The notes beneath the pieces are model-generated. The model was not told the DNA's origin and did no database searches. It worked only from the letters and a program-made list of their open reading frames with translations. A stretch of 64,000 nucleotides of DNA from Podarcis cretensis (taxonomy: Eukaryota): contig OX638150.1 of NCBI GenBank assembly GCA_951804945.1, forward strand, positions 94,364,001-94,428,000, read 5' to 3'. Made by a program: the position numbers and the translations under genes. This document shows positions 955 through 57,185 of the stretch, one piece after another; the stretch's first letter is position 1, and each line of letters begins with the position of its first letter.

Positions 955-996
955 CCTTCATTGGTGTATCTGAAGAAGTGTGCATACACACGAAAG
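955..996 (+). mobile_element. Penelope-like element terminal fragment, 5' part (carries 5' half of a minimal hammerhead ribozyme); left boundary approximate
   Basis: TTGGTGTAT-CTGAAGA-A-GTGTG CATA CACAC-GAAAG; continues seamlessly at 6132 once the copia element and one TSD copy are removed. Confidence 0.75.
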
Positions 997-1321
997 TGTT
1001 GATTAGCAGTAGTGTCCAAGTGCACAGCGGAATGATGAGGAATACGTGCTCATACTCTAAGTTGCTTTATTTACATTTCAAAGCTGGTAGATTACAGAAA
1101 AACATCTTTACTCTGCCGGAGCAGAGAAAATGCATCCTCTCTCCTCTGAAGCACGGAGAGAATCACACTGTGTGAGAACAGTGAAAAAAACAGGAAACCA
1201 GTGTACGTCACATCCAGTCTCCTTTTCCCGTGGGAAACACAACAGTAATGCTGTCTGTGGAATGTAAACATTGTCTTGTGACAAGCCTTTCGCTGCACAG
1301 TGAAGAGAGCAGAAACCAACA
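997..1321 (-). repeat. 3' LTR of the copia element
   Basis: 325 bp; follows the PPT; minus-strand AATAAA at 1066-1071. Confidence 0.97.
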
Positions 1322-1333
1322 TCCTCCCCCTTT
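1322..1333 (-). promoter_or_regulatory. Polypurine tract
   Basis: Minus strand AAAGGGGGAGGA directly abuts the TG of the 3' LTR. Confidence 0.92.
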
Positions 1334-1368
1334 CTGTGAACACCACTGGGCAGCGTGTTCGTACAATA

Positions 1369-4300
1369 TCAGTACAAACCCAACTTCTGCACATAGGTAC
1401 AGTGTTGATCCCTTGATACAATCTTGGACAATACATCAGCAGGAATTTCATTACCTGGCATATAGGACACCGTTACGAGTCCCTTCTGAATACGCTCCCT
1501 AGCATGTTGCAACTTCAATTGCAAGTGCTTCGTGCTTTGCTTACAACCATCAGAATTCAGCAAAGCCAAACATGCTTTGTTGTCCTGGTAAACCTGGATT
1601 GGACATTTGACAGGAATTCTCATGTCTTTGCACAATTGTAACAACCATTCACAATCTTTGAGTGAATAAGACAGTGCATTCAGTTCAGCTTCACAAGTAC
1701 TTAAGCTAACTGTTGTTTGCTTCTTGCATGACCAATCAAATAGACCTTGATTGTACATATAGCAAACTCCAGACGTACTTTTCCTGTCTGTAGTGTCACT
1801 TCCAAAACTTGCATCTGCAAATATCTCAAGACCACCAGACTTCTGATTGTTAAATCTCAGTCTGTAATGCATAGTGCCTTTCAAATACCGCGCTATGCGT
1901 TTCAGAGCTTTCCAATCCTTAACAGTAGGATTGTTGACTTGTCTGCTTAGCAAATTACAGCTAACAGCAATGTCTGGTCTTGAACATCTGGCAATAAAGT
2001 TTAGCTTGCCTAGCACACTTCTGTACAGTGTAGTGTCAGAAAATGCTTCTTCAGTGTCATCTACCTGATAACCTGTTATCATTGGTGTGTCTACAGGGTT
2101 AGCATCCATCAGGTTTAGTTTGCCTAACACATCAGCAATTTTCCGTGACTGGTGTACTAGAATGTTACCAACTTGATCTCTCTCTATTTCCAGAGATAGG
2201 TAGTTGTTTACCTCACCAAGATCTTTCATGTCAAAGTGTTCCTTCAGTTGAGCTAGGGCGTTATTGTACATTGTGACATCATCCCAAAAGAATAAAAGAT
2301 CATCAACATAAAACAAACAATACAGTTTCTTTTGCCCCTCCTCTTTGACAAATACACATGGATCAGCTTTCCCTTGCTTAAAACCTAGAGAAAACAATAC
2401 TTCAGTGAGTTTTATGTGCCAACACCGTGCACTTTGTTTGAGACCATAAAGGGACTTTTTCAGAGCACAAACAAATCCCTGTTTTACCTGTACGCCATCA
2501 GGTGGAAGCATATAAAGTGATTCATCTAGAGATCCGTACAGAAAAGCTGTATTCACATCATGGTGACTAATGTGTAGATTCTCCTCTGCAGCTAGCTTGA
2601 GCATAAGCCTAATGCTCTCATACCTCACTGTGGGTGAGTAGGTCTCGTGATAGTCTTCACCTGGTACCTGTGCAAAACCTCTGGCTACCAATCTGGCTTT
2701 GTGTCTGACTATCTTGCCATTTTGATCAGTCTTCGCTTTGAAGACCCATTTGCTTCCACGCAGTTTCATTCCTGGAACTACTGGAACAAGTTCCCATGTT
2801 TTGTTCCTTTCCAAGGAATCAAGCTCAGCCTTCATGGCATTTAACCATGGTTCAGCTTCCTTTGAATCCAAATCCTGGATTTCTTGGAAACTTGAAGGTT
2901 CAAATACCTTCTTGGAGCTTTTAACAGCTGTTACTGCTATCTTAGCAAACTCATCAGCAAATCTCTTTGGAGGTCTGCCTTTTGTGGCTCTTTGTGACCT
3001 GCGAATTAGCCTTAGGTCTTCAACACTCTCCTCTTCCTTCTTAGGAGAAAAGCGACCTATTGTGAACAATGGTTCCTCCAATTCTTGATCAGAGCTTTCA
3101 GAGGGTCGCATAGAGGCTTTCGCAGTCTTGAAATCCTCTGAATCACCTGATTCAGTTTCAGACTCAGAATCAGAACCTTCATCAGTGGGTGTGGGTTGCT
3201 GTGGTTGCTTTTGACTATCCTCAGTCTCATCACCGTCATCAGGATAACATTGGAAAATTCCCACATTCTCCCCCCACTTAGCATTGTACTCAACACTTCT
3301 TGTGAGCTTAATAGTCTTAGAGTCAGTCATCCTTATTCTGTAAGAACCTTTCTCATAACCTAGAAAGATACCATGCAAACCACGCTTGTCTAACTTGGAG
3401 TTTTGTGGTGAGTGAACCCACATGTCAGAACCAAAAATTCTCATGTGTTTGATGTATGGTTTCTTGCCAAACATCTTCTCATAGGGGGTACAACCAATCG
3501 CTGAAGATAACCTGCGATTATAACTGTAAGTGAAACATGAGAGAGCTTCGGCCCAATAACTCTCTGGAAGATTTGCATCATGCAGCAAGGTTTTTAACCC
3601 TTGAAGCAATGTTTGATTTGCCCGTTCTGCAAGTCCATTCTGCCATGGCGAGCGAGGACTAGACAAATCGTGTTGAATTCCTTTCTCAGACAGAAAAGCT
3701 TCAAACTGCTGAGAAGTGAATTCTCCCCCGCGATCACTGAAAAGAGTTTTTACCTTGTTACCATGCACATTTTCCAACCAAGCACAGAATTCCTTGAACC
3801 TAGGAAAAGCCTCTGATTTCTGCTTGAGATTGTACACATAAATATACCTGGAAAATGCATCAATGAGAACCATGAAGTACCTATTTCCTCCCAAAGAGGG
3901 CGCTAGTGGTCCAACCAAATCAGCATGAATAATTTGGTATGGTTCTGTAGCTTGCCTACTAGACACCTTACCTTTCGCAGCCATTTTCACCTTGTTTGCT
4001 GCGCATGCCTTGCACTTCATGTGGTACCTGCAGGGTTTAATAGTCATACCTTCAACCAAGGCAGGCATTTTAGATACTGCCTCAAAACCCAAATGTCCAA
4101 ATTTTCGATGAAAATCATGAATACATTCTGCATGCAAACATTTGTTAGAACCTGCAATGCAACAAGTATCATCCTGCACAACATCATCATAATACAAAAC
4201 ATATAAACGATCAACATATTCAGCATACAATACATAATCATTTTTCTTTGTGATGATGCACCTTTTGTTCTTAAAGGAAACGTCAATGTTCCGCTCATTC

Positions 4301-5397
4301 AGCTGTCTAACGCTGAGCAAATTATGTTTGGCATCCGGCACATAAAGTACATTCTGTATCGATAAGTCCAAACTGTGAAGAACAACAGTTCCGTAGCCTT
4401 TACTGGGAATTGTGTGGTCATCTGCCTGGTGAATCGCACCTTCCTGCGGTGTAAAAGACACGAACATTCGCTTATCGTTGCACATGTGGTGGGTTGCCGC
4501 TGAATCAACAACGAAGAAAGATCTAGACGTCTTCTGGACCTCTGCAACTTTCGGAGTAAAGCGTGAGACCATTGCTTTGGGCTGCGTTGTCCTGGACACC
4601 GGACCTTTGCCTTTGCCTCGGCCTTTTCCACGCGATGAGCTTCCACTGCGCTGCTCTGTCTTGGCCCTGGGATATTTGCATTCCCTCTTCATATGGCCTA
4701 GACGTCCACACGAGTAGCATTTCACTGCCTTCAAAGCTTTGGCACCATCTGGTGGTTCCACTGCACTCAGGGATGACGTCTGTGAAGACTCCCCCTTTCC
4801 CATGCAGCTATCACCCTGGCAATCTGCTTCATTTTGAATCACGGCAGTAACATAATCCACTGTCAGCTGAGCGGTAGGCTGTACAGCAATCTGAGTCGCA
4901 ACAGACTCCCAACCTGAACCCAAAGATTGTAGTATCATGAAGGAATACACAGCCTCTGGAAAGTTGAGTCCTCTCTGTTGCAGCTCATGTCTCAGATTCT
5001 GCATCTCCATCAGATGTGTACGCACATCTCCACCTTCAGCAAGAGCCATATTATGCAGCTTGTTAAAATAAAACATAGTAGATCCAGCTTCTGTCCTCAA
5101 GTGTGCCTCCCTCAAAGCGTCCCAAATTTCTCTGGCTGAGGTCTTATCACGCAATAGACAGAGCTCTTCTGGGGATACTATCAATGTAAGAGTTCCCCTT
5201 GCTTTGGAATCTTTAGCTTTCCATGCATCTGTAATTGGAGCTGGGGGGGTATCTGTAATAACTTCAAACAGACCCTCTTTCCGCAGAATAGCCTCTGCAT
5301 AGATAACCCAGTCCACGTAGTTCTTCTTATTGAGCTTGGGAATCCCACAAGCATCCTGAAGGGCCATCATGTCTCTGGCATTAGCCTTCTGCGTCAT
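1369..5397 (-). CDS. Copia gag-pol polyprotein, about 1342 aa from the first ATG (track ORF opens at 5415 on TTG)
   Basis: Gag region, then zinc knuckle CYSCGRLGHMKREC (CX2CX4HX4C), protease VVDSAATHHM, integrase HHCC (HRKFGH...CKAC), D..D(35)E core (HADLVG / SDRGGEF / GLAERAN), GIFLGY motif, RT (KARLVARGF, LKKSLYGLKQ, YVDD) and RNase H (FADASFG, CEAE, QDN, ADVLSK). No stop or frameshift. Confidence 0.97.
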   Translation of the reverse strand: MTQKANARDMMALQDACGIPKLNKKNYVDWVIYAEAILRKEGLFEVITDTPPAPITDAWKAKDSKARGTLTLIVSPEELCLLRDKTSAREIWDALREAHLRTEAGSTMFYFNKLHNMALAEGGDVRTHLMEMQNLRHELQQRGLNFPEAVYSFMILQSLGSGWESVATQIAVQPTAQLTVDYVTAVIQNEADCQGDSCMGKGESSQTSSLSAVEPPDGAKALKAVKCYSCGRLGHMKRECKYPRAKTEQRSGSSSRGKGRGKGKGPVSRTTQPKAMVSRFTPKVAEVQKTSRSFFVVDSAATHHMCNDKRMFVSFTPQEGAIHQADDHTIPSKGYGTVVLHSLDLSIQNVLYVPDAKHNLLSVRQLNERNIDVSFKNKRCIITKKNDYVLYAEYVDRLYVLYYDDVVQDDTCCIAGSNKCLHAECIHDFHRKFGHLGFEAVSKMPALVEGMTIKPCRYHMKCKACAANKVKMAAKGKVSSRQATEPYQIIHADLVGPLAPSLGGNRYFMVLIDAFSRYIYVYNLKQKSEAFPRFKEFCAWLENVHGNKVKTLFSDRGGEFTSQQFEAFLSEKGIQHDLSSPRSPWQNGLAERANQTLLQGLKTLLHDANLPESYWAEALSCFTYSYNRRLSSAIGCTPYEKMFGKKPYIKHMRIFGSDMWVHSPQNSKLDKRGLHGIFLGYEKGSYRIRMTDSKTIKLTRSVEYNAKWGENVGIFQCYPDDGDETEDSQKQPQQPTPTDEGSDSESETESGDSEDFKTAKASMRPSESSDQELEEPLFTIGRFSPKKEEESVEDLRLIRRSQRATKGRPPKRFADEFAKIAVTAVKSSKKVFEPSSFQEIQDLDSKEAEPWLNAMKAELDSLERNKTWELVPVVPGMKLRGSKWVFKAKTDQNGKIVRHKARLVARGFAQVPGEDYHETYSPTVRYESIRLMLKLAAEENLHISHHDVNTAFLYGSLDESLYMLPPDGVQVKQGFVCALKKSLYGLKQSARCWHIKLTEVLFSLGFKQGKADPCVFVKEEGQKKLYCLFYVDDLLFFWDDVTMYNNALAQLKEHFDMKDLGEVNNYLSLEIERDQVGNILVHQSRKIADVLGKLNLMDANPVDTPMITGYQVDDTEEAFSDTTLYRSVLGKLNFIARCSRPDIAVSCNLLSRQVNNPTVKDWKALKRIARYLKGTMHYRLRFNNQKSGGLEIFADASFGSDTTDRKSTSGVCYMYNQGLFDWSCKKQTTVSLSTCEAELNALSYSLKDCEWLLQLCKDMRIPVKCPIQVYQDNKACLALLNSDGCKQSTKHLQLKLQHARERIQKGLVTVSYMPGNEIPADVLSKIVSRDQHCTYVQKLGLY

Positions 5398-5783
5398 CTC
5401 TGCTGCTTTAAACAAGCTGCTTTATACAAGCTGCGTCTCTGCTGCTTCAAGCCTCATTCCAAAGGCAAGTTCAAAAGAGCTTTCCCTCTGCTGCCCTAAA
5501 ATCATGCTGCGTCACTTCTGCAGCTGCTTCAGCCCTTTTAAAAGTTACTTTCGATTTCCCCAGCATAGCCTTCGCCTGTTCCCGGCAAACGGCCATAAAA
5601 GTTCAAAGTCCAGCCATAAAGCCATTAATTAGAAGCTGGCAGGCTGCCCGGAGCAGTAGCACATACCTCATCAATCATCTTGACGCGCAGATACCGTCCG
5701 ATCCATCCCTTTGCATTCCGATCCTTTTGCCGGCATTCTGATGACTGCGTCTTTGCTCCTTTGCCAGGAGCCCGATTCGACTT

Positions 5784-5797
5784 CTGGGCCCATAACC
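5784..5797 (-). promoter_or_regulatory. Primer-binding site complementary to the internal anticodon arm of initiator tRNA-Met (half-tRNA priming)
   Basis: Minus strand reads GGTTATGGGCCCAG, 4 nt inside the 5' LTR. The plus strand CTGGGCCCATAACC is the tRNAiMet anticodon-arm sequence, not the tRNA 3'-CCA end. Confidence 0.92.
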
Positions 5798-5801
5798 AAA
5801 A

Positions 5802-6126
5802 TGTTGATTAGCAGTAGTGTCCAAGTGCACAGCGGAATGATGAGGAATACGTGCTCATACTCTAAGTTGCTTTATTTACATTTCAAAGCTGGTAGATTAC
5901 AGAAAAACATCTTTACTCTGCCGGAGCAGAGAAAATGCATCCTCTCTCCTCTGAAGCACGGAGAGAATCACACTGTGTGAGAACAGTGAAAAAAACAGGA
6001 AACCAGTGTACGTCACATCCAGTCTCCTTTTCCCGTGGGAAACACAACAGTAATGCTGTCTGTGGAATGTAAACATTGTCTTGTGACAAGCCTTTCGCTG
6101 CACAGTGAAGAGAGCAGAAACCAACA
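5802..6126 (-). repeat. 5' LTR of the copia element
   Basis: 325 bp; reads identical to 997-1321 on manual comparison; adjacent to the PBS. Confidence 0.97.
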
Positions 6127-6235
6127 GAAAGCTCATACCAAGTACTAACTTAGTTGGTCTTTAAGGTGCTACTGGAAGGAATTTTTTTATTTTGTTTTGA
6201 CTATGGCAGACCAACACGGCTACCTATCTGTAACT
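6127..6235 (+). mobile_element. Penelope-like element terminal fragment, 3' part
   Basis: GAAAGCTCATACCAA...TTAGTTGGTCTTTAAGGTGCTACTGG...GCAGACCAACACGGCTACC, recognised from memory as a common reptile Penelope terminal repeat. Confidence 0.75.
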
Positions 6236-6395
6236 TCATTCCTGCCTTATTCAAACCTCTGCCCATGTTTAAAATAGCCACTTTCCCCTATCCCTTCTCG
6301 CTCTCCCATTCCTCAGCTGCCCCACATGAGAAATGTAAAGGATGTGGACCCCTCAAATATTCCCATGATACTTTATTCAACCCTGTGTTCTTGTA

Positions 6396-14960: not shown

Positions 14961-16713
14961 TTTATTTTTTAAATGATATTTTATTAAGTTTTACAGAAAA
15001 TTAACAGTCAACAAAAATCACAGAAACAACAAACAACAAACATCAAGAATGCAAACAAGACAAGGAATAAAAAGAAAACATAAAAAAGATTTAACATAAT
15101 AATAAAAAAGTGAAAAAAAACTCTTTTTCAATTTAATAACCTTCAAAACCTTATTTTCTTTACTTCCACCCGCCTTCCCTTCTTGTATTCCACTTTAAAA
15201 ATTATTTCAGCAAGCTCATTCATTATTCGTTTTCATCCTTTATCCTTCCCTTTATACTCTTATTTATCTTAATCGCTAGGACCCCTTCATTTCATTTACA
15301 ATGCCCTTAGCATTCATAAATTTTACAGTGTTTTTGTAGATAGGCTTTAAACTTCTTCCAATCCTCTTCCACCTGCTCTTCTCCTTGATCTCGGATTCTG
15401 CCGGTCATTTCTGCCAGTTCCATATAGTCTATTACTTGCATCTGCCATTCTTCCAAGGTGGGTAGTTCTTGTGTCTTCCAGTGTTTTGCGATGAGTATTC
15501 TTGCTGCTGCAGTAGCATACATAAAAAAAGTTCTATCCTTCTTTGGCACCAATTGGCCGACCATGCCCAGGAGAAAAGCCTCTGGTTTCTTTAAGAAAGT
15601 ATACTTAAATACCTTTTTCAGTTCATTATAGATCATTTCCCAGAAAGCCTTAATCCTTGGGCAGGCCCACCAAAGGTGAAAGAATGTTCCTTCCATTTCT
15701 TTACATTTCCAACATTTATTATTGGGCAAGTGATAGATTTTTGCTAGCTTGACTGGGGTCATGTACCACCTGTAAATCATTTTCATAATATTCTCTTTTA
15801 AGGCATTACATGCCATAAATTTCATACCGGTGGTCCACAACTGTTCCCAGTCAGTGAACATAATGTTATGACCAATATCTTGTGCCCATTTTATCATAGC
15901 AGATTTAACCGTTTCATCCTCAGTATTCCATTTCAACAGCAAATTATACATTCTCGACAATACCTTAGCACTGGGTTCTAACAATTCTGTTTCCAGCTTC
16001 GATTTTTCCACCTGGAAGCCATTTTTCCTGTCCGAGTTATAGGCCTCTCTTACTTGAAAATAGTGTAACCAATCTCGCACCTTATCTTTAAGTTTCTCAT
16101 AACTCTGCAGTTTCAATTTATCTCCCTCCTGCTCCAAAATTTCACAATATTTTGGCCAGTTAGATTCCATATTAAGTTTTTTCAAGGCCTTAGCCTCCAT
16201 TGGAGAAAGCCACCTTGGGGTTTTATTCTCCAAAAAATCTTTATATCTGACCCAGACATTAAACAACGCTTTCCTGACAATATGGTTTTTAAACGCCTTT
16301 TGTACTTTGTCCTTACCATACCACAAGTATGCATGCCATCCAAAAGCATTATCATATCCTTCCAAATCAAGGATGTCTGTGTTCTCAAGAAGTAGCCATT
16401 CCTTCAGCCAGCAAAAAGCTGCCGCCTCATAATATAGTTTGAAGTCCGGCAGGGCAAACCCCCCTCTCTCCTTCGCATCAGTAAGAATTTTATATTTAAT
16501 TCTGGGCTTTTTGCCCTGCCAGACAAATCTAGAAATTTCTTTTTGCCACTTCTTGAAACAATCCATCTTGTCAATTATCTGTAACGATTGAAACAGAAAC
16601 AGTAATCTTGGCAATACATTCATTTTGATAACTGCTGTTCTACCCAGTAAGGATAACTTTAGGTTTGTCCACGTTTCAAGATCTTTTTTCACTTCAGACC
16701 AACACTTTGTTTC
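14961..16713 (-). mobile_element. 5'-truncated L1-clade LINE
   Basis: ORF2 C-terminus, 3' UTR and A-rich tail; 12-bp TSD TTATGTGCTTTA at 14949-14960 and 16714-16725. Confidence 0.93.
15307..16692 (-). pseudogene. L1 ORF2 C-terminal 461 aa, no true start
   Basis: LSLLGR..IKMNVLPR, F.WQGKKPRI, GGFALPDF..YY and CWKC..EGTFFHLWWAC cysteine-rich motif; open to its natural stop. Confidence 0.9.
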
Positions 16714-27129: not shown

Positions 27130-27860
27130 CTCTCTGGGGAGAGCATTCCACAAGTGGGGAACCACTGCAGAAAAGGCCCATTCTCGTGTTGCCACCCTCC
27201 AGATCTCTTGTGGGGGAGTCACATGAAGAAGGACCTCAGATGATGATTGCAGGGTCCAGGTTGGTTGATATGGGAAGAGGTGATCCTTGAGGTATTACAG
27301 TCCTGAATTGTTTCATAGATCAAAACAAGCATTGAATTGGGCCCAGAAACTAATTGGCAACCAGTGTAGTTGGGGCAGGATTGGCATTATATGCCCAAAC
27401 CATCTTGCCCCTGTAAGAAACCTGGTTGCTGAATTCTGCATCAGCAGAACTTTCCAAACCGTCTTCAAATATAGCCCTACATATAATGCATTGCAGTAAT
27501 CTAACCTAAAGGTTACCAGAGCATAGACAACAGAAGTTAAGCTATCCCTTTCTAGATAGGGGTGGAGCTGGGCCACTAGCTGAAGCTGATAGAAGGCAGC
27601 TTCTCTCTGCACCACCCAGGTCACCTGGATCCTCAAGCGACAGCCATCATGCTGCATGCCCAATCAATAGCAGGCAACCTCCCATCCATCTGGTCTAGGA
27701 AACTATCCACTAACAGTGCCTCAGTTTTATATGGATTCAGTCCACTGCTGACAGCGGTCCAGCACATCCACTACAAAACCTGCAGATGTAAAGAAGTAGA
27801 GCTGTGTGTCATCGGTATATTGCTGGCAATGTACTCCAAAATTCCGGATAATCCCATTCA
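27130..27860 (-). mobile_element. Degraded L2 LINE, ORF2 C-terminal region
   Basis: ORF 27313-27663 contains RLDYCNALYVGL and HI.PIL.QLHWLP, typical of L2-clade ORF2. Confidence 0.85.
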
Positions 27861-52701: not shown

Positions 52702-53203
52702 TTGTTGTTGTTTAGTCGTTTAGTCATGTCCGACTCTTTGTGACCCCATGGACCAGAGCACGCCAGGCACTCCTGTCTCCCACTGCCTCCCGCAGTTTGG
52801 ATAAACTCATGATGGTAGATTCGAGAACACTGTCCAACCATCTCTGTCGTCCCCTTCTCCTTGTGGCCTCTATCTTTCCCAACATCAGGGACTTTTCCAG
52901 GGAGTCTTCTCTTCTCATGAGGTGGCCAAAGTACTGGAGCCTCAGCTTCACAATCTGTCCTTCCAGTGAGCACTCAGGGCTGATTTCCTTCAGAATGGAG
53001 AGGTTTGATCTTCTTGCAGTCCATGGGACTCTCAAGAGTCTCCTCCAGCACCATAATTCAAAAGCATCAATTCTTTGGCGATCAGCCTTCTTTATGGTCC
53101 AGCTCTCACTTCCATACATCACTACTGGAAAAACCATAGCTTTAACAATATGGACCTTTGTTGGCAAGGTGATGTCTCTGCTTTTTAAGATGCTGTCTAG
53201 GTT
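52702..53203 (-). mobile_element. BovB (RTE) LINE 3' fragment
   Basis: Translates to NLDSILKSRDITLPTKV..VKAMVFPVVMYGSESWTIKKAD..RIDAFELWCWRRLLRVPW; (CAA)n tail. Confidence 0.95.
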
Positions 53204-55751
53204 TCTTACAGAGGCAAAAAGTACCAATTGTCTGCAACTGACTATTATTATTATTATTATCATCATCATTATTATTAGTGTTAAAAATCTTACACAACTG
53301 CCCACTCAGTTTGCAGCACCTAATTGTACATTCTCCTAAACTGTGCAGAGAGCTTTCATGAGCAGAGAAGTCTCCCAGGTTTTCAGACCTCCACTCAATA
53401 AACCGAATAAAGGTGATGCACTTTGGGGCAAGGCTAACTTGGCCACTTCCCCCTCACATTTGTTTACATGCAATTACAGCAAATGTCCAAACACAATCTA
53501 TGCATCCTTTGTAACCACATGAGCCATAATGAAATATTTATATAGTTAACTAATTTAGCAATGTAAAGTGCTGTTCTTAGAATTCTACCATCAGACTCTC
53601 TCCAGCACCCTTGAACCCAGCTGCCTCCCCTAGGTTGCCCAACCCATCTGTAAAGTCATGTGAATTAAGACAATGGCAGCCAGTAGTTCTGACCCCTTGC
53701 CTAATACAGCTTCAGTGTGACATATTATTGCCAAGAAGCAAATGGCTAATCTCAGCCGAAATGCTCTGAACATACTGGCTCCTACATTATCTACATAGAA
53801 TTCCGAACACAGATTTGCACTTTTCTAAGCATATGCTAAAATGGACCAGAAGGCCAGATATATGTGCGCTGAAATACCACTTTTGCAATCTTTATTAAAT
53901 AAAGCCATAAAGCATTTTTAAACAGCAATTTTTTTCAAAGCATTTCCATTAGCAAGGAACATGGTTTTTCTCCCCGCACATGAGAATTAGAAATGATAAA
54001 CCCAACAACTACTTCTATTTTGTAAAGCTAAATTTTCCTAATATTTAATTTATAAATAAATTCCCAGATGGATTAGTAATAAATGTTTGAAGGCGGCAGA
54101 CAGGAATACAAGGAAGTATAATGTTTGCTGGTTACTAGGAGGCCTCATTAAAAAGGCATCAAGTGAAAGAAAAATAAAAACAACCCTGTGAACTTTTGTA
54201 ATTGGTCTCAAGGGAAATGTAACTTTAAGGACATCAATGTGGTCTCAGCTTGATCAAATATCCCAAAACTGAAAAGCAACATTCTATAGCATTTCAGTGT
54301 CACTTCTTGCTATGTCAGTTATTTTTAGGGTTTTTTTATTTCCCAGTGTGAGCCCCTGCACAGCTATAAACCAGTTTCTAAACAAGAAGCATACAATTAG
54401 GATTTTGCTTTGAAATAAAGCAGAGGTAGGCTAACTTCAGAGTTGCAGAATCTGTTTTGCTTGTTACTAGTACCCTGAGATATGCCTACTAGAATCAATG
54501 CTAATTATTAAAGAATTCTGAGCACAGAAACTTATTTTGAGTTCCAGAACTCAATTCGCACTTCACACAAAAAACCTACTCCAGTTTTCTTTCTTCTAGT
54601 ATGGAAAGTTGTTTTGTTACTGCCACAGTTTATCAGTTGGGAACCAGAAATTATTGCTGATCAGTTTCCACATCCCCCTGAAACCTACCAGTAAATCTCA
54701 ATTGACCTTCTCCCCATCCCTAAAGCAAAGAACATTAGGTTCCTTTTCTTTTAATTACTTAGTTATCTAACAATGTTATCAGAGGCCATATTTGAATTCA
54801 ACAAGCTTTTGACAAAGACAAATGATTAATTAGGGTAAGTGTAAATTAAAACAAATGTTTTATCAAAACCTCCTCTGCAATCTATTGTTTCAGCACTTAT
54901 GTAGAGCTATGCAAGTATGCAGCTTATGAGTTTTTGATTGTTAAAACAGAACTACATATAGCACTCTGGCAAAATATGGGTTACAGCGATCAAAGCAATC
55001 GTGTTCAAGCAAGGAATTCCACTTCTGCAACATCACCTCCTCTTCCTCTTCTCCCACTCAGAGCATAACTGAGATGCACATTGGGTACATGGAGAAAGGA
55101 AGGGGAGAAGTTCCCACAGCAGAAGTGGAAGTGATTGAAACCACTCTGTTGGATATAACCCTATATGTATATCCAAGCTACAATGCCCAATGTTTTGACA
55201 TCAAGTAGAATGGAGCAGGTACTTTACTTCACTCCAAGAAGTGCCATCAATTATTTCAGGAGTGGTTTCCAAGAGTGAATCTATTAAACATAATCTTTTG
55301 CTTCTTTTATATGAAGCTGTTGCCAGACTGAATGGAGTGATTATTCCCCACCCACCCTGCAATACACTAATTGTACTATGGTTATCAACAAGTAAAGTGC
55401 TTTCAGGAAAATGCGTAGTCATTTGTGAGAATGTGCAGCTACTATGAGTACTGTATCCTTCTTCGCCAGGAGCTTTACAAAGCTGCTATAGCCAGTTACA
55501 ATACTCCTTGGCCAGGAATAGTGTAGCACTGGTGGAACTGTAGGGGCTATAGGGAAGGCAGGGACTGGCTACAACTCAGCTGCCAGTACTGGACATGACC
55601 ATGTCAGCAGAGCAGAACACTTTGTGGCTTAATCAACTTTTAACAATTAAGGCTGCAATCCTTTACTCACAGAGCTAGAAGTAAGACCCATTGAACTAAG
55701 TGATGTTTATTTCTCAAAAGACATGTATAGGACCATACTATAATATATATA

Positions 55752-56652
55752 TGCCTGTTGCCTTTGTCCATGGAGTTTTCTTGGCAGGGATACTGGAGTG
55801 GCTTGCCGGTTCCTGCTCCAGGTGGATCACGTTTGGTCAAAACTCTCCACTATGACCTGTCCATCTTGGGTGGCCCTGCACGGCATAGCTCATAGCTTCT
55901 CTGAGTTATTCAAGCCCCTTCGCCACGGCAAGGCAGTGATCCATGAAGGGGAAAGGCGATGGCAAACCTAGACAGTATCTTAAAAAGCAGAGACATCACC
56001 TTGCCAACAAAGGTCCATATACAGTGGTGCCTCGCAAGACGAAATTAATCCATTCCGCGAGTCTCTTCGTCTTGCGGTGTTTTCGTCTTGCGAAGCAAGC
56101 CCATAGGGAAATTCGTCTTGCGAAGCGCCTCGAAAAACGGAAAACCCTTTCGTCTAGCGAGTTTTTCGTCTTGCGAGGCATTCGTCTTGCGGGGCACCAC
56201 TGTAGTTAAAGCCATGGTTTTCCCAGTAGTGATGTATGGAAGTGAGAGCTGGACCATAAAGAAGGCTGATCGCCGAAGAATTGATGCTTTTGAATTATGG
56301 TGCTGGAGGAGACTCTTGAGAGTCCCATGGACTGCAAGAAGATCAAACCTCTCCATTCTTAAGGAAATCAGCCCTGAGTGCTCACTGGAAGGACAGATTG
56401 TGAAGCTGAGGCTCCAGTACTTTGGCCACCTCATGAGAAGAGAAGACTCCCTGGAAAAGACCCTGATGTTGGGAAAGATAGAGGGCACAAGGAGAAGGGG
56501 ACGACAGAGGACGAGATGGTTGGACAGTGTTCTCGAAGCTACAAACTTGAGTCTGACCAAACTGCGGGAGGCAGTGGAAGACAGAAGTGCCTGGCGTGCT
56601 CTGGTCCATGGGGTCATGAAGAGTCGGACACGACTAAACGACAACAACAACA
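55752..56652 (+). mobile_element. Internally deleted (bipartite) BovB element: 5' head fused to 3' end, with a MITE inside
   Basis: About 200 bp of BovB 5'-type sequence (GTCCATGGAGTTTTCTTGGCAGGGATACTGGAGTGG...GATCCATGAAGGGG) joins directly to GCGATGGCAAACCTAGACAG of the ORF 3' end. (CAA)n tail; near-TSD TAATATATATA / TAATTTATATA. Confidence 0.85.
56022..56202. mobile_element. Tigger-like MITE family B, 181 bp, nested in BovB
   Basis: TA-CAGTGGTGCCTCGCAAGACGAA...TTCGTCTTGCGGGGCACCACTG-TA; BovB frame resumes after it. Confidence 0.93.
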
Positions 56653-57185
56653 ATAATTTATATAGTAATTGGGAATAACTGGACATGGAACAACTTTTTA
56701 ATACTCTCTCCAATGACGGTTAACCAGTCAGAAAAATTGACAGCTGCCCAAATGACTTCCTTGGGTTGCTCCCTGCTTGCCTGTTATTAAATGTAAACAC
56801 AGATGCCACTTGCTAGCCCCCCACCAAATATAGCCTTCCACTTCATACTGAACAGACTGCGAAATTCATACTTAAATCCAGCAAGTCCCAAGGGCTCTTT
56901 TCAGATACTTCTGGTCTTCCCAGAAGACTCGTGAAACTTGATTAAGCTAAAAACTGCATTTCATTTTCCAGTTTTATTTTGCATTTAAATGTAGAAAGTT
57001 ACAGCTGGAAAATAACCATTCATTTTCCTATGCACTTCTACTCTAGCAGTGAACATTTACATAACATTCTCAGATGCTTTAAGTCTATATTTCTCCATGT
57101 TTTGGGCAAAAAAAGGCTGTTATACTTATGGTGAAAAGTATTTCTGGATTCCGTAAAAGCTGCAGCCAGATTGGGTTTAGGTTCA

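Follow-up and report, generated by a model that had tools for sequence, protein, structure and literature searches.

We consider it very probable that the analysed DNA of Podarcis cretensis contains an intact Ty1/copia LTR retrotransposon that is one of at least 536 close copies, with likely recent activity and likely inheritance within lizards. This DNA, called the window here, is a stretch of 64,000 nucleotides (GenBank assembly GCA_951804945.1, contig OX638150.1, positions 94,364,001 to 94,428,000 of the forward strand). The RAG1 core of this genome agrees at 100% with a cluster named Podarcis raffonei and reaches no more than 95% in any other cluster (clusters built at 90% identity), which places the host among wall lizards or close lacertids.

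Structure of the element and its insertion site

The element is 5,130 bp long (Table 1). Its two LTRs start with TG, end with CA and agree at 325 of 325 positions, and the identity stops at either edge. A first-pass annotation of this DNA had reported identical LTRs, a perfect target site duplication (TSD) and a frame with the catalytic residues of protease, integrase, reverse transcriptase (RT) and RNase H, and all of these were borne out. The gag-pol frame has no internal stop across the 1,342 aa from its first ATG and ends 47 bp short of the 3' LTR. The protease DSAA, the integrase HHCC and D,D(35)E, the RT YVDD and the RNase H D-E-D-D motifs are all in place. To that description we add the minus-strand orientation, a 14-nt primer binding site (PBS) for tRNA-iMet, a polypurine tract (PPT) and nesting in a young repeat; PBS and PPT both lie between the two LTRs.

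Pfam domains occur in the order copia gag, zf-CCHC, protease, integrase, SH3-like and RVT_2. Integrase upstream of RT-RNase H, the RVT_2 match (E = 2.7e-68) with an intact YxDD motif, and TG...CA ends with a 5-bp TSD are all features of Ty1/copia (Pseudoviridae). RNase H was assigned by motif, as Pfam gave no RNase H match in the element, and the ORF list held no env frame in it.

Table 1. Features of the element and its target site (positions in the window).
Feature	Position	Strand	Basis
Target repeat's own 7-bp duplication	956-962 and 6234-6240		sequence
Target repeat, left piece	963-996	+	match to other repeat copies
TSD GAAAG, left copy	992-996	.	sequence; occurs once in uninterrupted target repeats
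Whole Ty1/copia LTR retrotransposon, 5,130 bp	997-6126	-	LTRs, Pfam, motifs
3' LTR, 325 bp, matches 5' LTR at every base	997-1321	-	LTR comparison
Polypurine tract adjoining 3' LTR	1322-1336	-	sequence; kept in sampled copies
Single gag-pol ORF, 1,342 aa (start taken as first ATG)	5397 to 1369	-	ORF list, Pfam
RNase H, four acidic residues (D-E-D-D), approximate bounds	1372-1830	-	motif match
Reverse transcriptase RVT_2, YVDD at 2310	2077-2805	-	Pfam, motif
Integrase: HHCC, D,D(35)E core, SH3-like C-terminus	3286-4209	-	Pfam, motif
Aspartic protease, DSAA at 4506	4288-4515	-	Pfam, motif
Gag (Retrotran_gag_2) and CCHC zinc knuckle	4675-5295	-	Pfam
PBS, 14 nt, pairs with tRNA-iMet nt 26-39 (linear count; anticodon arm)	5784-5797	-	host tRNA genes
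4-nt spacer from LTR end to PBS, differs among copies	5798-5801	-	sequence, copy comparison
5' LTR, 325 bp	5802-6126	-	LTR comparison
U5-end segment complementary to tRNA-iMet nt 1-20, predicted second primer-pairing site	5810-5837	-	
11-bp core of the U5 tRNA-complementary segment	5827-5837; segment repeated at 1005-1032	-	
TSD GAAAG, right copy	6127-6131	.	sequence
Target repeat, right piece	6132-6233	+	match to other repeat copies

CpG sites had been described as retained in the element, unlike in its flanks. We found observed/expected ratios of 0.46 in the LTR, 0.42 in the internal region and 0.375 in the ORF, and of 0.25-0.28 in the flanks. The difference thus stands in a weak form (CpG is less depleted inside), but the sites are not retained.

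The element sits inside a short, high-copy host repeat, presumably Penelope-like, to which its right flank belongs. This repeat had 798 candidate places, and its best full-length matches are 98-100% identical to the repeat in the window. In other copies of this repeat, GAAAG is present once (20-mer key; 8 places in four of the nine loci examined), so the TSD is a true duplication; upstream of GAAAG these copies match the left flank of the window for up to 34 bases. The copia is therefore younger than this already young repeat. Elsewhere in the window, open frames at 15307-16713, 27313-27663, 52724-53305 and 56049-56678 resemble what we take to be LINE fragments (L1/Tx1-, L2/CR1- and RTE/BovB-like).

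We then explored the insertion site in sequencing runs under seven organism labels, which contained between 0.34 and 0.69 of the words sampled. Coming in from the unique right flank, contigs of organisms B and C ceased to match at 6237 and 6234 and ran on for 1,540 and 318 letters, matching neither target repeat nor LTR. The contig extents in B and C also reach, within about 10 bp, the breakpoints of organism A left of the element (about −576 to −599, and 642). From these extents we infer that the copia and target-repeat insertions are both absent at this site in organisms B and C. The LTR family itself is present in both organisms. For organism A, no contig across the left junction was listed in any of the four runs, although one of 60 letters would have ranked above pieces that were listed. 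Contigs cannot show absence, and this result is only a hint of polymorphism within the species. At the right junction, matches to the target repeat drowned the signal.

Size, age and origin of the family

We searched the genome with an RT 18-mer and an LTR 17-mer chosen because they were present in 72 of 72 aligned copies. They gave 536 and 1,503 exact matches, respectively, and both reversed controls gave 0. The element is therefore one of at least 536 RT-bearing close copies, an ordinary member of a large and known kind. The first-pass annotation had called copia a minor component in squamates, with an implied rarity; this does not hold here, and squamate numbers are described as a record in the consulted part of PMC11889832. 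The statement of the annotation that copia is essentially absent from birds and mammals agrees with the part of PMC4350176 that we used.

The best 150 RT matches were 97-100% identical, and 91 of the 150 lay in open frames of at least 1,290 aa. Among 76 loci chosen by similarity, a set biased toward close copies, 73 had LTR pairs, 45 pairs were identical and 44 loci had full frames. We also took 40 loci by position among the first 100 of the 536 matches (contigs C1 and C2; 8 loci shared with the similarity-chosen set). In this positional sample, 35 of 40 loci had LTR pairs, 13 of these 35 pairs were identical, the full ORF was found in 10 of 40, and identical LTRs, TSD and full ORF occurred together in 7 of 40. 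Scaling 7/40 to 536 matches gives about 90 copies genome-wide as intact as that in the window (roughly 40-175). The pooled LTR-pair divergence was 0.64% (70 of 10,955 sites).

Two copies (L089 and L090, G000:C18) have the same TSD and length and lie 64.6 kb apart, and they are likely a segmental duplication. L090 and a mis-delimited copy (L064) were left out of the divergence, selection, recombination, frame and U5 comparisons. A gag stretch of about 100 bp in the window copy (4889-4991) is missing from 40 of 71 other copies, which probably accounts for the frame classes of 1,311 aa and 1,350 aa.

The window copy had been called very young. Zero differences in 325 bp bounds LTR divergence only below about 0.9%, so this claim draws in addition on the nesting and the apparently empty site; identical LTRs and a site apparently empty in two related organisms agree with a recent insertion. 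Could the LTR identity instead come from assembly collapse or gene conversion, with the copy older than it looks? For a single locus in an assembled sequence this is conceivable. However, LTRs of different copies differ by 5.7% on average, so identity within a copy is not a family-level collapse. In addition, the nearest sampled LTR is 2.2% away from that of the window, the same assembly resolved pairs with 1-9 differences elsewhere, and the site appears empty in related organisms. We regard this explanation as highly improbable.

Estimates of pN/pS were 0.16 for protease-integrase, 0.19 for RT-RNase H and 0.47 for gag (36 of 72 copies), which supports purifying selection on the family as judged from sequence. 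The distance matrices of different element regions correlated poorly (Spearman's correlations, −0.11 to 0.56). Four-gamete conflicts rose from 51% at less than 50 bp to about 70% beyond 250 bp (205 sites), with recurrent mutation as another source of such conflicts. Instead of a single master copy, these patterns suggest many source copies that replicate and recombine, probably through template switching.

The family was likely copying itself until recently, and it may be active at present. It is unlikely, but a serious alternative, that the family has recently died, with transposition stopped or fully silenced and the copy fixed in the species. Such an end would be in keeping with the LTR pairs that differ (22 of the 35 sampled, by up to 9 substitutions) and with the RNA record: no run labelled RNA was listed, and six runs labelled 'RNA?' contained 0.18-0.34 of the sampled words. 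However, zero differences were the commonest class (13 of 35 pairs), and the target repeat, too, matches other copies of its kind at 98-100%. Recent activity remains our preferred reading.

The relatives of the element were then compared. Only three close ones appeared among the 240 protein matches listed: P0001 (71% identical in RT/RNase H), P0121 (80%) and a gene model of the anguid lizard Elgaria (55-60%). P0121 matches, at 93-99%, a sister family (family B; L144-L151) of the same genome, which is 76-79% identical to the element in RT/RNase H and is represented by about 37 matches (37 of 137 rows), mostly with broken frames. The LTRs of family B are about 380 bp long, and their pairs are 94.8-99.7% alike in 8 of 8 copies. 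A third copia family (family C; L138-L143, also L111-L116) shares about 30% identity with the element along the polyprotein, and its paired LTRs are 97.7-100% alike; many of the 80 motif matches lie near contig ends.

In quick trees, the element, family B and P0001 formed a clade with support 100, and Elgaria joined its base, also with support 100. Elgaria was left out of the first tree for length and added in the second, where four other rows were dropped. Within database coverage, no distant taxon yielded a closer relative than related hosts did. The annotation had mentioned a possible horizontal origin of the family; the sister family in the same genome, the Elgaria relative and the distance of named non-squamate matches give it no support.

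A recent transfer from a non-squamate into the wall-lizard lineage, followed by a burst, is a very unlikely origin. It could be proposed from the long branch to all non-lizard rows of the tree and from P0001, the closest outside relative, which has no host name. An ancient horizontal gain of Mtanga copia in sarcopterygians is also left open in the consulted part of PMC11889832. Vertebrate retroelements are thinly covered by annotated proteins, and a transfer partner may have escaped the search. However, family B resides in the same genome, Elgaria is basal in the same clade, and among the matches listed the named non-squamate ones reach at most 42% in RT/RNase H and others at most 43%, apart from P0001 and P0121. 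The presence of the LTR in organisms B and C and the ORF CpG ratio of 0.375 also argue against a recent arrival. Judged from these sequences, the family likely came down by inheritance within lizards, not by a new acquisition; the relatives fit a long residence in squamates, and an ancient transfer would fit them as well.

Primer binding and a predicted second site in U5

According to the known copia cycle, RNA from the 5' LTR would be translated into a single gag-pol polyprotein, the 5' half of tRNA-iMet would prime minus-strand DNA, the PPT would prime the plus strand, and integrase would make the 5-bp duplication. All 14 nt of the PBS are complementary to the tRNA-iMet genes of the host, of which 8 were found in 5 of 7 loci. 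It targets the anticodon stem-loop and not the 3' end, as in Hemivirus-type elements. Among 72 copies, 34 had the canonical PBS, 19 were one G short, 13 were of a TATC type and 6 were other. PBS and spacer (5784-5801) vary among young copies at positions facing the anticodon loop. In five of six regions of the 72 copies, the PBS types showed no agreement with nearest-neighbour relations; gag gave p = 0.011, uncorrected. The PBS may thus be either inherited or regenerated. In family C, the PBS is about 30 nt long and covers tRNA-iMet nt 10-39.

The tRNA family search scored 63 candidates. Six motif loci contained no tRNA and proved to be the third copia family. Another locus (L132:1-221) is a degenerate tRNA-iMet 5' half that begins at nucleotide 1, reaches the anticodon arm and then gives way to unrelated sequence.

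One copy (L094, G000:C8:77446779-77452607) differs from the others. Just after its 5' LTR, the PBS is extended to 27 nt of tRNA-iMet complement, after which the U5 end and PBS occur once more. Such a stretch derived from the tRNA half was found in 1 of 73 copies. From its sequence, L094 is likely a fossil of plus-strand synthesis into the primer, followed by mis-transfer at U5. This structure led us to search for a tRNA-complementary segment in U5, and the pairing test was thus devised after L094 had been seen.

The U5 segment is predicted to pair with nt 1-20 of tRNA-iMet at −31.6 kcal/mol, versus −9.4 with the 3' half of the tRNA. Pairing as strong was found in 3 of 1,001 windows of the element, all at LTR ends, and in 0 of 500 shuffles. 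Of 72 copies, 68 retain the 11-bp core, which borders on a hypervariable stretch, and the positional sample retains it in 35 of 40. Among shuffled LTRs, 3 of 300 attain this core match. In family C, whose RT is 34% identical, all three copies scanned have a site in the corresponding position (−30). Family B has no site at its U5 end but has mid-LTR sites of −29 to −33, and 2 of 150 shuffles were as good. The helices formed with the U5 segment and with the PBS cross, and a joint fold formed the U5 helix only.

We tentatively suggest, as a possible rather than a probable reading of these predictions, that lizard copia elements hold the half-tRNA primer over nearly its whole length by a split site. 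The PBS would bind the anticodon arm and the LTR box nt 1-20, in families only 34% alike in RT, and the box might act as a landing site in plus-strand transfer, as in L094. In that case the U5 end would bind the priming tRNA half itself, at its 5' part.

Alternatively, the U5 segment may be a leftover of captured primer read-through with no present role, which we judge to be close to an even chance. L094 illustrates a route to such capture, the conservation of the box is matched by about half of the 11-nt windows in the LTR, family B has no site at its U5 end, and the crossing helices leave only the box helix in a joint fold. Less readily explained by a mere leftover are the retention of the core next to hypervariable sequence (68 of 72 copies; 35 of 40 in the positional sample), the site at the corresponding position in family C and the comparable mid-LTR sites of family B. 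For half-tRNA copia, we found no description of U5 pairing with tRNA nt 1-20 in the literature searched, outside of which lie key Ty5 and Ty1 primer papers. The predicted second site may therefore be new.

A single intact lizard copia matters little by itself, because squamate copia abundance and recent activity are already in print. Nevertheless, insertions of this family are likely to generate polymorphism among wall lizards, and its copies offer a set of young markers. If true, the second tRNA site would bear on half-tRNA primer binding and on the guidance of plus-strand transfer, which have been studied mostly in yeast and fly elements. With around a hundred intact recombining copies, wall lizards would then offer a natural vertebrate model for half-tRNA priming.

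Comparison with known systems

Klai et al. (2025; PMC11889832) reported, in the part consulted, copia in 23 of 24 squamates with record copy numbers, and 1,004 copia sequences in 44 clusters in Podarcis muralis. All 750 amniote copia elements, including all lepidosaur ones, were placed in Mtanga. Our element resembles these squamate Mtanga elements as a copia in a lacertid, and their sequence and tree files may name its family. The consulted part does not report LTR ages, selection or primer anatomy for individual families.

The corn snake has Copia insertions in OCA2 and CLCN2 whose sequences differ at a single base, its genome has 85 copies, and the element has been proposed as active (PMC4657000, PMC11948899, as far as consulted). 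Corn snake colour mutants show the possible effects of such insertions. Both elements are young squamate copia, and that of the corn snake is polymorphic. However, it is 5,832 bp long, its LTR and RNase H region, compared by eye, appear to belong to another family, and it has known phenotypes, whereas none is known for the window element.

The half-tRNA-primed Pseudoviridae form the genus Hemivirus, which includes Drosophila copia and 1731, yeast Ty5 and Osser (PMC1181622, PMC10886601, consulted in part). They share with our element the PR-IN-RT-RH order, a single frame and the 5-bp TSD. They prime from nucleotide 40 of tRNA-iMet in the anticodon stem-loop, and the window PBS follows the same mode. 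Our element differs in its vertebrate host, its 4-nt spacer before the PBS and its U5 segment complementary to nt 1-20. Bipartite primer binding, in which tRNA-iMet pairs outside the core PBS, is described for Ty1 and Ty3 in the consulted part of PMC5371799; in Ty3 the D arm pairs with LTR sequence, akin to our predicted U5 site. However, Ty1 and Ty3 prime from the 3' end of an intact tRNA, whereas the predicted U5 site would engage a half tRNA.
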